Source: Eledone cirrhosa
Lineage: Eukaryota
DNA: 64,000 nt
Assembly: GCA_964016885.1 (NCBI GenBank)
Contig: OZ024751.1
Span: 44,826,001-44,890,000, forward strand
Reading direction: 5' to 3'
The position numbers and the translations under genes are program-made. Every line of letters starts with the position of its first letter. The first letter of the stretch is position 1. The notes below the pieces were generated by a model. It had not been told where the DNA came from, made no database searches, and saw nothing but the letters and a program-made list of their open reading frames with translations. Shown here piece after piece: positions 2,784-58,601 of the stretch.

Positions 2784-3221
2784 CTTAGGGTAAACATTGA
2801 TGCAATTCAATTCAAGCACTCGACGCACTTCTTCCACATAGGAGTGACGGAGTAAATATCGAATAAGTAAAAGCGAAGTAGTTTCAGATGTTCAAGTCCT
2901 TTAATAATAATTGTTTCTTCTTTTTGGCACAAGGCCAGCAAATACCCAGTGTATTACTGGTACTTTATTTTATCGACCCCGTAAGGATGAAAGGCAAAGT
3001 TAACCACGGCGGGATTTGAACTCAGAATGGCAAGGGCCGTAACTCTATGCGTCAAAGCATGGCGTCCGACCCTCTACCGATACTGCCTATCCACCGCCCT
3101 ATCTTAAGTCCTTTAATAATAATGCTGTGATATATATTTCAGTGTCGTCATTGAAAATATATATCACAGCATTATTATTTAAGGACTTGAACATCTGAAA
3201 CTACTTCGCTTTTACTTATTC
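2784..3221. mobile_element. Palindromic TA-inserted element interrupted by a SINE
   Basis: With the SINE removed, 2861-2911 + 3124-3140 is inverted to ~3153-3221. Left tail 2784-2860. Confidence 0.72.
2911..3100 (-). mobile_element. tRNA-derived SINE, main family (other - copies ~7947-8123, 13001-13206, 13247-13312, 15626-15710, 31946-32134, 34594-34782, 34790-35000, 46533-46718)
   Basis: ~190-bp consensus with A box TGGCAGTATCGG, B box GTTCAAATC and central 'gcctttcatccttacggggtcgataaaataaagtaccag'. 18-bp TSD at this copy. Confidence 0.9.
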
Positions 3222-3690
3222 TATATATATATATATATATATATATATATATATATATATATATATATATATATATATATATATATATATATCAGAAATA
3301 ACAATACAATCGATACAGTATATGGAAGGGATATATTAGGTTAACGCTTGAAATAGCAGGAAGAGGGTCTTAACGTTTCGGACGCTAGTCCTTCAGAAGA
3401 AGAAAGAATGAGAAATAAGATAGATTGAAAGGACGGGCGGGTTGGAATTGGAAAAAATGTCTTTAGATAAAAATAACAGGTCCCTACGTGCGAGTACCTA
3501 TATATAAATGTATATGTATATGTGTGTGTGTGTGTATGTGTGTGTATCCCAGGTTCAATCGGAGGTAACCAAAGTAAATAAGGTACTCAATACAGAGCAG
3601 AGTATAAATATTTCATATAGAAGTGTAGAAGCCTTTTCTATATTAAATAGTGAGTCTTGTTACTCTGGAATTTCGCCTGTTTATCATGGA

Positions 3691-3732
3691 GTCTGATGAC
3701 CCTGTGATAAACAGGTGAAACTCCAGCGTAAC
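3691..3732 (+). ncRNA. Hammerhead (stem I truncated) in small palindrome 3645-3747
   Basis: gu CUGAUGA c ccugu-gauaa-acagg u GAAA cuc-ca-gcg UA ac. The inverted arm 3645-3686 has gag at this position, which restores stem III. Confidence 0.62.
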
Positions 3733-55315: not shown

Positions 55316-57172
55316 TTATACTTCTCTTAGGTCAGTGTTGTTTGTTTGGGTGTTGTTGTTGTTCCACTCATTCTTTCTGTTTAGCTTTGGTCTTCTAATT
55401 TCTATTTCACTGGCCTCTCTGATTTGCCTATCTGCTGGGTCATTCCTATGTTTAGATATTATTCTAATTTCTATGTTGTCTATGTTACCGTCATGATGTT
55501 GTCTAGCATGTTCGTATAGTACTGACCCGTTTTTTCGTCCTTTTAGTTCCCCCCAGTGTTGGTCTATCCTTTCACCTATGCTACGAGCTGTCTCACCTAT
55601 GTATGTTGTTGTCGTGTTTCTACAAGTACCCTCTGTACATCTTATGCTATAGACTACGTTTCTAGTTTTACAGTTTATCCGGGGGTTCACCTTACATATG
55701 ATACATTTCCTATTGGTACAGTGGGTTTTCTTAAAAGGGTAGGTTTTGCTGATCAGGGATTTTATGGTGGTTCCTGGCTTTTCTACCACCTTTATTTTTA
55801 AGTGGGTCTTTCTCAGGGCCTTTCTACACTGGTTAGCTAATTTCCCTCCAGGGGTGGCGTCCACAAACATGACACTCTGATATCTCTGGTTGTCGTACCA
55901 TGATGTGGTCTTCCCTATCTTATGTCTAGCCCTATCTAAGCTATTCCATGATTTGCTCCTGTATAGTGGGCAAATTCCTTTCATGTCCAGTTCTATGAGG
56001 GTCTTATACTTTTCCATGGCTCCTTCGTATACTCTGACTCTGTCTCTTTGGTTGTAGCCAGAGAACTGCATGCGGTTGATGAAGTGTTGGATGTGTCCTT
56101 CCATTTCTGTTGGGTCGCACATGCTGGACACATTCTTCATCACTCGTACCAAATCTGCGATCAGAATATTAAACTTAGCACTACTGGACATTGCTGAGTT
56201 TTTGAGTATCAGGTATTTGGAGGCCATGGGTTTAGCATAGTGTGAGTGGAGAATTTGGGCTCTCTCGTCTATAGTGTTAATCCAGAGTTCTGTGTCTAAT
56301 ACAGGTAGTCTATTGTTAGGGTGTTTGGAAGGGAAGTCTATAGTTACAGTTATACTCTGGTGTATGGAATTAGCTATCTGCTGGATGCTTTCCATCGTGC
56401 TACGTTCTAAATCAAACTTGTTAGTGCTCTCTAGTGGGGGTGTTCTTATAACTATATTGATATCGTCTACATAACGAGAGTACATGATGAGGTCTATGGA
56501 GCTTTCATTAAGGAGATCTTTAAGTCTCCTTTCCCACCATACCATGAAAAGGTTGGCAACATCGCCAGCTATGCTGACGCCGATGGCTGCTCCCTCATTT
56601 TGGGTGTAGATTTTCTCATTGAACTTAAATATGTGGCCCTTTAGGGTAGTTTTGATACTAGCCCCTATTGCATGTGCGACCATTTTTCTTACCTGATCAG
56701 TGTTTTGGGGGGTCCGTATAGCTTTGGTCCACCCAATCCACCTTCCTATGGGAGTCTTTTTAGCCATTGAGGTTATGGTGGGGGGTCTACCTCTTATAGG
56801 TCTACTAGGGCAGAAACATCTAAGGTCATGGCTGTCTAGGTAGTCAGTGTCGTAGGTAAGTCTAAGTAGGAGGCCCAGTTCGTCTGTGTCGACGTCGCAG
56901 AACTCCACCTCACTCTCAATGATCATCTCCACACATCTTTTCACAGCAAAATCAATGTTAATGGATGGGTACAGTGACACCACATCCATGCTGCCTATTA
57001 TGCAGTTGGATAGGCTCCTGTTTTTGTTGCACTCACTGATTCTGCTGAGGAGGTCCTCTGTACTTTCACATACATCTGGGGACATCTTGATTATGGGGCG
57101 TATAACCATTGAGAGGAAGTAGGAGATCCTGTAGTTGCTAGCTATATTAGCTCCGCATACAGGTCTTGTTGG
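55316..57172 (-). CDS. PLE reverse transcriptase + GIY-YIG endonuclease (N-terminally truncated, frame intact)
   Basis: RT motifs SMDVVSLYPSI, GAAIGVSIAGDVANLFM, YSRYVDDI. Cys-rich linker, then NVVYSIRC...TYIGETARSIGERIDQH and RQIREASEI. The first ~40 aa of the 658-aa track ORF come from the inverted pLTR. Confidence 0.93.
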   Translation of the reverse strand, partial: PTRPVCGANIASNYRISYFLSMVIRPIIKMSPDVCESTEDLLSRISECNKNRSLSNCIIGSMDVVSLYPSINIDFAVKRCVEMIIESEVEFCDVDTDELGLLLRLTYDTDYLDSHDLRCFCPSRPIRGRPPTITSMAKKTPIGRWIGWTKAIRTPQNTDQVRKMVAHAIGASIKTTLKGHIFKFNEKIYTQNEGAAIGVSIAGDVANLFMVWWERRLKDLLNESSIDLIMYSRYVDDINIVIRTPPLESTNKFDLERSTMESIQQIANSIHQSITVTIDFPSKHPNNRLPVLDTELWINTIDERAQILHSHYAKPMASKYLILKNSAMSSSAKFNILIADLVRVMKNVSSMCDPTEMEGHIQHFINRMQFSGYNQRDRVRVYEGAMEKYKTLIELDMKGICPLYRSKSWNSLDRARHKIGKTTSWYDNQRYQSVMFVDATPGGKLANQCRKALRKTHLKIKVVEKPGTTIKSLISKTYPFKKTHCTNRKCIICKVNPRINCKTRNVVYSIRCTEGTCRNTTTTYIGETARSIGERIDQHWGELKGRKNGSVLYEHARQHHDGNIDNIEIRIISKHRNDPADRQIREASEIEIRRPKLNRKNEWNNNNTQTNNTDLREV

Positions 57173-58101
57173 TATAACACCACTGACGATGTTGCAGATG
57201 TGCAACGAAAGATTTATGTAAACTATATATATATGTGTTTGTCTATATTGTATCTGTATTATTTTTGACCGCCGGTCAGTCAATGGCAACATTGAGGACC
57301 GAGTAAGTTAGATCGCAGATATATATATATAAAAGACAGCGAGAAGCGAAAACCAACCAAACAGTGAGTGTGTTCTGTTATTAATTCTGGCAATATTACG
57401 CAAATATGACCCTCCCCAAATATAACAATATCTGTTTCGACACACGATTTCATATAAAAAACCTCGCAAAACTAATTCATCGCCGCTATATATATATATA
57501 TATATATATATACATATATATGTGTGTATGTGTATGTGTCTGTCTTCTTTCATTATAATCCTTACACTCTATAAGTTGAGTAACTTGTTTTACGTAATCA
57601 TTACGTAAAGCAATTAAAATAATATATACACATGTTCATATTCATGTATGTATAATCAGCACGAGGTGTGAGTGAGGACTTGCAATTATATGGAATGTAT
57701 GCGCGTAATTATGTGTGCCTGTATATGTGCGTGTGCGTGTGTATGTGCGTGTGCCTGGATGTGTGTTTGTGCCTACGTATATGCGAATGCGTGTATTTCG
57801 CAATAAATATATAAAAAAGCACGTGTCGAATGAATGGAATTGTATGATGGGCGGCAACCAGTGAACCGTCGAATATATACACACAGACACATATATATAT
57901 ATATACACACACACAGTATATATAATTATATATATATATATATATATATATATATATATATATATATATATATATATATATATATATATAGTGAAAAATT
58001 GAACGGGAACAAAACAGAGAGGCAGTACGAACAAAGGTTTATTAATTTCACGCTCTTGAGAGTGGGGTGGTGGTATATATATATATATATATATATATTT
58101 C

Positions 58102-58601
58102 TTTAGGTTTGTTGGTTCACCACTGGATAGAACTGGTCATTCCGTGTGGTCAATCCTGGTGTAATATTGTGAAGAGTACTCAACGCAGTGCAGTTCACCC
58201 ATCTTCGTTTGTGTAGTTGGTGGTGCGAATACGGAGTTAATTATAAATGAAATAAAATAACAGGAGGCTGGACTGGTGTAAATCCTTGAAAGGTTTATTA
58301 TACTATGATCATTTCAATGACCGGGTTCCATATGAATCCGGTGATATCATCAGGTATTGGAATATAACAAAGTAATATGTAAAAAACCATGGGTCCGAAA
58401 AATCAGAGACAGAGAGAGAAAGGACGACTGACCAACTAGCTTCTCGGCCAGTCGCCCTCAAAATGGGCGACTATTGTTATATTCCAATACCTGATGATAT
58501 CACCGGATTCATATGGAATCCGGTCATTGAAATGATCATAGTATAATAAACCTTTCAAGGATTTACACCAGTCCAGCCTCCTGTTATTTTATTTCATTTA
58601 T
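58102..58601. mobile_element. Family E palindromic hammerhead element
   Basis: Arms 58242-58369 and 58474-58601 are inverted, with a ~140-nt left tail. (TA)n flanks. Confidence 0.8.
58487..58544 (+). ncRNA. Type I hammerhead (mirror copy 58300-58357, -)
   Basis: auac CUGAUGA uauc accggauuc-auaug-gaauccggu cauu GAAA ugauca UA guau. Confidence 0.82.

Follow-up and report, generated by a model that had tools for sequence, protein, structure and literature searches.

Penelope-like element ends and retrozyme-like tandem units lie head to head in TA tracts of an octopod genome, pairing one short and one long 3′ end

The 64-kb window analyzed here (coordinates 44826001-44890000 of contig OZ024751.1, in the 3.0-Gb genome of Eledone cirrhosa; GC 35%, 119 TA tracts after merging) contains short palindromic islands that sit between (TA)n tracts and bear hammerhead ribozyme motifs. 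Two questions are raised by this locus: (i) what are the islands and (ii) how can one insertion come to have two outward-facing 3′ ends. For the first question, the islands are TA-bounded insertions of the ends of Penelope-like elements (PLEs) and of tandem units without an open reading frame (ORF), a population of known kinds. Palindromic ends are ordinary for PLEs; what is new is a counted rule, by which an insertion pairs a short 3′ end site (S) with a long, tailed 3′ end site (L), and the appearance of the same signature in retrozyme-like units. For the second question, the genomic counts lead us to think it probable, on balance, that both target strands would prime at two known start sites of the reverse transcriptase (RT) on one RNA.

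Counts from outside the window come from genome loci (L031, L144 and so on) and from a sample of 59 evenly spaced 10-kb stretches (590 kb in total). F1-F15 denote families of ends, and other positions are those of the window. Genome-wide copy numbers are counts of exact-pattern matches, which for the whole genome were 1005 for F8, 4949 for F2, 611 for F6 and 43 for the F3 junction.

The window holds one copy of a young PLE, in two arms:

54789..57173, minus strand: young PLE long arm, with a 5′-truncated RT/GIY-YIG frame (55316-57173), 3′ untranslated region (UTR) and pseudo-long terminal repeat (pLTR); S end against (TA)n
57173..57486, plus strand: inverted short arm of the young PLE, with a hammerhead-like core at 57183 (2-bp stem I); L end with a 59-nt tail

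The 3′ ends of this family fall at two places on its tandem unit, S at unit positions 4177-4184 and L at 4209-4242. Counted from the start of the unit, the ATG is at 22, S at 47 and L at 90-105, that is, S lies 26 nt and L 69-84 nt past the ATG. Each S or L end falls at a TA or AT of the element that merges into the target. All 10 two-armed insertions in a first batch join S and L head to head (the rest of its 20 stretches show one end), as do 27/29 in a second batch, which has no L+L pair and was drawn from 40 loci, 6 of them one-armed and 7 with an end out of view or interrupted. L144, scored at first as an exception, is an older, separate copy with 16 differences; setting it aside leaves 37/38 for the young PLE.

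The pairing recurs in the PLE families F8 (17/17) and F2 (8/8), in F3 (15/15), in the ORF-less F6 (3/4) and in the retrozyme-like units (8/8 clear cases, four atypical F1 loci being set aside). With L144 left out, the six families together give 88 S+L pairs among 90 two-armed insertions, where independently picked ends would give S+L in at most half. In the spaced sample, 49 inverted pairs abut TA directly at one end and are free of long TA tracts inside: 39 have a tail of 20-250 nt, 3 are flush on both sides and 7 have no second tract nearby. A random position has a TA tract at tail distance 17% of the time, and 81 other inverted pairs in the sample are not TA-bound.

The two arms of an insertion belong to one haplotype. 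Two young-PLE subfamilies differ at five sites, and the arms agree in 26/26 informative pairs (7 B/B and 19 A/A), an outcome with a chance of ~3e-7 at a B share near one third; several arm pairs also share private changes. Within arm pairs, 51 differences were counted over 56 kb, L144 and L151 contributing 25 of these, compared with 224 between loci. Where the arms meet, 35/45 junction rows (the set contains 3 duplicate rows) overlap, the mean being 4.1 nt against 0.62 nt for random joins, and in 10/45 there are additional bases, which often repeat the end of the neighboring arm. Direct re-copies of 7-17 nt, up to three times over, occur at the junctions of L032, L145, L146, L153, L158 and L159 and resemble telomerase-type slippage or templated repair inserts. 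Target-site duplications are unreadable in pure TA for 32/34 flank pairs; L143 has one of ~12 nt, and L169 and L174 are suggestive.

Five end families adjoin RT and/or GIY-YIG frames: F4 (hammerhead at 53950), F7 (41117), F2 (34159), F8 and the element at 54789-57486. The F4 end stands directly behind GIY-YIG frames in the sampled loci L082, L087, L101, L108 and L120, and the F7 end lies downstream of another such frame elsewhere in the genome. The frames of F8 (774 aa) and F2 (597 aa) both have YRDD and YIG, all such motifs being read by eye, and their proteins are 50% identical; blastp gave no match between either and the young-PLE protein. The full young-PLE unit is 4137 nt, which is its tandem period, and has a 1217-codon open frame (L031:1327-4977) with YVDD and VY..YIG; the N-terminal part of this frame contains an Asn-rich stretch of ~160 residues. 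All 71 scored matches have 100% protein identity, 71 having been scored of 45,700 first-look candidates that include relatives. No near-identical copy occurs in the 590-kb sample, and the exact young family must therefore be much smaller than the candidate count. Its best named protein match is an Octopus vulgaris protein (69% identity). Profile matches are weak, with RVT_1 at E 1e-4, below the Pfam cut-off, for the young PLE and GIY-YIG at only E 0.022 for F8/F2; a Pfam scan of the full 1217-aa frame gave no domain match, and distant homologs of the protein carry PF00078/PF01541/PF26215.

These elements have the organization of endonuclease-positive (EN+) PLEs: one frame with RT followed by a C-terminal GIY-YIG by the motifs read, partial tandems that form pLTRs including the first codons (the 4137-nt period; an F8 tandem in L273), and an inverted 5′-truncated copy with a one-sided tail. 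The Neptune clade is defined by a CX2-5CxxC finger between RT and endonuclease together with tree position; the young PLE has CTNRKCIIC here and the F7 parent CSRPRCNTC, and F2/F8 have another pattern, CNC..C. Parent frames for F3, F5a, F5b, F9, F10 and F15 were not reached in the genome stretches followed, where longer copies continue into common upstream sequence. The sequence-only reading that preceded this work had proposed that many Penelope families or non-autonomous derivatives target TA repeats; both parts of this proposal are supported, by the five families with parent frames and by two ORF-less tandem families. Three side observations concern these elements. A AAGATGGCG motif, presumably YY1-like, is conserved in the F4 3′ UTR ~60-70 nt before the core (L082, L087, L089, L108), near a small cluster of 5′ ends. 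Matches to an F2 33-mer are biased in strand (3582 forward, 1367 reverse), a bias that a large tandem array on one strand may explain. In the single RNA run, which carries another organism code, 0 reads fell on the young PLE.

The ORF-less units are represented in the window by F6, listed below, and by F1:

52541..53049, minus strand: F1 left arm, ORF-less ~500-nt tandem unit, retrozyme-like; hammerhead 52858-52814; S end
53046..53529, plus strand: F1 right arm; hammerhead 53128-53172; L end with a 58-nt tail

F1 consists of ~500-nt ORF-less units in tandem with a type I hammerhead in every unit, one per unit, as non-LTR retrozymes do. In the folded retrozyme circle, as predicted, 69% of the bases are paired. 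A sister family has a 430-nt period and 11,548 exact 27-mer matches. The tandem unit of F6 (58487) measures 1961 nt, and its longest frame free of stops has 86 codons. Comparison of the retrozyme with five PLE ends revealed no sequence link. As the retrozyme forms S+L head-to-head pairs in TA, it shares the PLE insertion signature, pointing to mobilization by a PLE as the candidate mobilizer. At L079 a retrozyme arm is fused straight to the PLE end of F4, which may reflect a switch of template between the two families.

The 5′ ends of the arms pile up in several families. Relative to the core, 45/74 ends fall at +40..+55 in F8, 24/38 at -9..+2 in F2, 15/27 at -73..-68 in F15 and 16/40 at -57..-46 in F5a; palindrome centers vary between copies. 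Long F2 copies conserve TATAAATA 30-33 nt before the pile-up point, where an initiator-like CCAGATT sits; going by consensus motifs, we take the two to be a TATA box and an initiator. A few 5′ ends (34159 in the window, L120, L159) have a possible cap-derived G, which is ambiguous, since C naturally precedes the start.

A mechanism has to accommodate what the counts establish: two outward 3′ ends, S+L pairing, same-haplotype arms, junction microhomology, the 5′ pile-up and five parent frames. We suggest that the element protein would nick a (TA)n tract on both strands and that two cDNAs would be primed on one RNA, at the S site and the L site, where 2-4 nt of UA in the RNA would presumably pair with the respective target 3′ end. 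Of the two polymerases, the trailing one would displace the leading cDNA; to our knowledge, PLE RTs have no RNase H. The two cDNAs would stop independently and be joined by microhomology, host repair filling in. The S and L sites are part of the frame's first codons and so recur in the 5′ pLTR carried by every mRNA. If priming took place in that copy, both cDNAs would run off the 5′ end of the transcript and leave a palindrome of 100-500 bp centered on the transcription start; a full-length copy would form only by reading through into the tandem unit that follows. Units without an ORF would make use of this protein too. For the hammerheads, cleavage in the form of dimers is predicted in tandem transcripts, and they would be passengers in the stubs.

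A broader proposal, which we hold to be possible though doubtful, is that PLE insertion would be obligately asymmetric twin priming by a dimer that reads one RNA twice, with retrozymes riding along and TA targets being multiplied. If true, head-to-head insertions, the one-sided tail and promoter-centered mini-palindromes would be products of one mechanism; TA would be left on both sides, and the elements would contribute to the TA richness of the octopod genome and to its hammerhead motifs, roughly 10^5 in number. A census of TA edges, in which 116/489 complex flanks recur at other TA edges, gives a floor value that speaks neither for nor against PLE-driven growth of TA.

The nearest rival of single-RNA twin priming is twin priming in which each protomer has its own RNA, both RNAs coming from one tandem precursor that was possibly cut by the dimeric hammerhead. 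Two such RNAs would share their haplotype, and the scheme also accounts for the two 3′ ends, free arm lengths and microhomology; tandem copies are common, and the hammerhead would be given a role. By itself, however, it leaves the pairing of S with L in 88/90 insertions unexplained, and it sits poorly with L177, where one arm is the 59-nt tail alone, stopping at S, and with the 2-bp stem I of the youngest family. We regard this alternative as unlikely, though worth keeping in view.

A snap-back, in which one cDNA folds on itself and is copied and the endonuclease resolves the hairpin at a second site, would produce identical arms, near-symmetric centers such as those of L047, L167 and L169, and the re-copied bases at some junctions. 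A copied arm cannot exceed the first cDNA, so the tailed arm would have to be the longer one; in the young PLE, S is longer in 13 cases, L in 13 and neither in 1, and the S arm is often longer by kilobases (L150, L152, L177, L178 and the window copy). This excludes the snap-back for the S-longer half. It may account for a minority of insertions, and as a general explanation we think it improbable.

Little credence can likewise be given to self-priming on antisense RNA, proposed for the same geometry in PMC3846280, by which a palindrome is made first and then integrated by the endonuclease. Identical arms and junction palindromes would follow. The scheme needs antisense RNAs that end at the TATA/initiator position of the sense strand, gives no reason for both polarities of arm length, and stands against in vitro work that used sense RNA. 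Fold-back artefacts of assembly or library, to which perfect palindromes in simple repeats are prone, and TA-targeting DNA transposons akin to miniature inverted-repeat transposable elements (MITEs), with which the 3/49 pairs flush on both sides would agree, are very improbable given the family-specific tails at fixed positions at many unlinked loci, the variable centers, arms diverged by up to ~14% in old copies, the parent RT/GIY-YIG frames and an opposite-strand joint inside the young PLE in contigs of an independent run. The MITE or Tc1-mariner pattern itself (equal terminal inverted repeats flush on a TA duplication, with a fixed interior) was looked for and rejected, since 39 sampled pairs are tailed against 3 flush and centers vary; by resemblance, L131 may be a DNA transposon.

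Several points weigh against single-RNA twin priming. Its support is drawn from genomic sequence, and two RNAs derived from a single source transcript would also give arms of the same haplotype. A study of the anole element found the start site to be alike on both strands, with no homology between RNA and cleaved DNA (PMC11167929). Six of the 40 young-PLE loci are one-armed and L158 is S+S; the F1 loci L062, L064, L079 and L080 have inverted pieces that end elsewhere; and L151, scored as S+L, may represent two copies, given its 834-nt gap and 9 differences. The extra bases at 10/45 junctions belong here too, and BLAST overlap can overstate homology. The F3 copies were selected with a search pattern lying across the inversion. 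In F4 and the young PLE the 5′ ends are broadly spread, and pile-ups elsewhere may partly reflect subfamily divergence from the reference copy. Finally, the youngest family has a degenerate hammerhead, so that the ribozyme cannot be essential.

The remaining islands of the window, the two-armed ones first, are as follows (strand given where one applies):

2784..3221: palindromic island, 77-nt tail; broken by a ~180-nt repeat resembling a short interspersed element (SINE)
26427..26630: F8 PLE island; arms begin inside stem II and have only the 3′ half of the hammerhead
27658..28369: F5b palindrome, arms 28031-28364; hammerheads 28251 (plus) and 28144 (minus)
28768..29328: F3 perfect palindrome; hammerhead 28979 with ~125-nt stem II; 137-nt tail
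29356-29513, 29546-29704, 42159-42334, 42904-43037: further F8 islands
33462..34005: second F3 palindrome; hammerhead 33664; 137-nt tail
34029..34216: F2 palindromic pLTR pair (PLE); hammerhead 34159 (plus) and its mirror; center at the presumed transcription start; 79-nt tail
51562..51749: F2-related island
53675..54156: F4 palindromic pLTR pair (PLE); hammerhead 53950 (plus); tail 53675-53746
54238..54396: F15 short palindromic island; hammerhead cut off; 86-nt tail
54439..54768: F5a palindromic island; hammerhead 54543-54480 (minus); 90-nt tail
58099..58598: F6 palindromic island, end of the ORF-less 1961-nt tandem unit; hammerheads 58487 (plus) and 58357 (minus); 147-nt tail
3545-3620, 4347-4469, 28620-28740: F2 one-armed ends
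15180..15417, plus strand: F9 one-armed end; hammerhead 15283
41037..41260, minus strand: F7 one-armed PLE end; hammerhead 41154-41117; second copy at 3293-3490
25474-25568, 28383-28493: F8 relatives

The TA-bounded palindromes with a one-sided tail number ~18, of which 12 come from an inverted-pair search (15 rows with tails, less two cross-island pairs and one simple repeat that were spurious) and 6 were read directly; one-armed ends add ~11. The earlier count of about 20 islands between TA tracts is thus borne out, and sequence comparison of the ends agrees with its minimum of eight families. Hammerhead sense strands face outward, as it had described. Its one-sided tail stands, with a wider range than the 55-140 nt it gave (31-147 nt, plus one tail of ~370 nt). 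Its claim that such elements make up much of the sequence between microsatellites does not hold for the islands, 29 of which together cover 10.3 kb, or 16% of the window. The RT/GIY-YIG element, placed by it at 54787-57486 and said to have the same ends, does have the same architecture, except that its own core (57183/55033), with a stem I of only 2 bp, is not a type I hammerhead.

Hammerheads were sought with descriptors that set an upper limit on stem II length, locally shuffled sequence serving as control. All ten sites previously read as complete type I folds fit, by descriptor or by eye, each with CUGANGA, stem II, GAAA, a short or palindromic stem III, UH and a stem I of 4-9 bp, and shuffled windows gave almost none (mean 0.01-0.19 matches). 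Descriptors found 28251, 34159, 41117, 53128, 54480 and 58487, and a second descriptor 53950; 15283, 28979 and 33664 were identified by eye, their stems II of ~55 and ~125 nt being above the scanner limit. Most sites had been credited with mirror copies, and 6/10 have a complete one (28251, 28979, 33664, 34159, 53128 and 58487); in 2/10 the mirror is cut within the motif (53950, 54480) and in 2/10 it is absent (15283, 41117). At most sites the predicted minimum-energy monomer fold differs from the hammerhead, as expected because minimal motifs are of the dimer type. The proposed density of roughly one motif per 4 kb was too high: a strict scanner used alike on both sets found 8 motifs in the window, 1 per 8 kb, and 37 in the 590-kb sample, 1 per 16 kb, in 19/59 stretches, with 0 in each of 10 shuffles of the sample. 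On the sense side of the sampled motifs, a TA tract is usually reached after no more than a few hundred bases. Scaled to 3.0 Gb, the 37 motifs in 590 kb point, by extrapolation, to a load of ~1.9e5. Among the matches listed from an Rfam scan (150 of 484), mostly TA-driven or microRNA matches, there was no hammerhead. In F8, the core reads TTGAGAA in 18/30 copies (U3-A8, not C3-G8), which we take to be a compensated pair, and CTGAGAA in 7; most short F8 copies start within stem II and so are without the core.

The window contains other repeats as well. The ~180-nt repeat, which we assume from its likeness to be an octopus SINE, occurs as three tandem copies at 50707-51248 and at ~25 other places, and a 400-nt repeat is found at 7201-7598, 10729-11139 and 23446-23865. 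At 18965-19645 (plus strand) a 226-codon frame with a Cys/His cluster presumably corresponds to the C-terminal part of ORF2 of a long interspersed element (LINE). Minisatellite arrays occupy 17232-18152, 20938-22751 and 47661-48180, and further arrays extend from 59040 on, near which the 11-nt CCACATCTAAA array begins. At 42673-42744, within a TA-bounded island, Rfam gives a tRNA-like match of 46.6 bits, which exceeds the gathering score; it is possibly a SINE head.

How do these insertions compare with known systems? In twin priming by L1, both target strands prime cDNA and a 5′ inversion is joined by microhomology; the second primer uses internal sites that vary, with no duplication of the 3′ end. 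Unlike L1, both primers here use fixed neighboring sites, and each arm contains the same stretch of the RNA. S+L pairing, the haplotype match, the 5′ pile-up and twin priming by PLEs were not found in the literature searched, subscription papers and supplements lying outside the search. For the repeat annotation of cephalopods, the large hammerhead load and the many perfect hairpins matter; the main text of a 2026 study of O. vulgaris repeats that counts Penelope families is, in the portion consulted, without the words ribozyme and palindrome (PMC13282606).

PLEs are known to have inverted 5′-truncated copies, to carry a tail at one end, to favor TA and to have hammerheads in their pLTRs (PMC8557442), and the PLE background given in the sequence-only reading, pLTR hammerheads and inverted copies, was already in print (PMC8557442, PMC3846280). 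The EN+ PLEs Penelope/Poseidon, Neptune and Nematis are alike in their RT-GIY-YIG frame, pLTR tandems and inverted truncated copy (PMC8557442, PMC3846280, PMC2377424), as well as in a tail often at one end only, a pLTR with the first codons, a pLTR hammerhead, a microsatellite bias and an internal promoter, the last shown for Drosophila Penelope (PMC2377424); the Asn-rich insert of the young PLE recalls those of Adineta PLEs. Published tails are 30-40 nt, compared with 31-147 nt here. Naiad is alike in its TA targeting and differs in that the elements here have a C-terminal endonuclease and hammerheads. The origin of PLE inverted copies and tails is listed as unresolved in PMC8557442, and the near-identical young family and its counts narrow the models of PLE inversion to a sharp prediction.

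The Poseidon element of Anolis carolinensis (PAc) cuts and extends both strands in vitro and is modeled as a dimer, and two adjacent internal RT start sites define its tail (PMC11167929). PAc resembles the elements here in having start sites inside the start of the frame, an AT-rich target and a hammerhead dispensable for insertion; its start sites are non-homologous to the target, whereas ends here lie at TA/AT microhomologies. In its text as available, that study makes no link from the two start sites to inverted insertions.

Metazoan non-LTR retrozymes share with the retrozyme-like units here the ORF-less tandems, one type I hammerhead per unit and a strongly self-paired predicted circle (PMC7761336). 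Their mobilizer is called unknown in that review, and a 2026 preprint ties retrozymes to PLEs by distribution and phylogeny (bioRxiv 10.64898/2026.07.22.740005). The counted rule together with the retrozyme signature makes two open questions testable, the origin of PLE inverted copies and tails and the identity of the retrozyme mobilizer. Compared with the review's ~150-300 nt, the retrozyme units here are 430-500 nt, and where its text finds no motif that reveals the mobilizer, they insert in TA as S+L head-to-head pairs.

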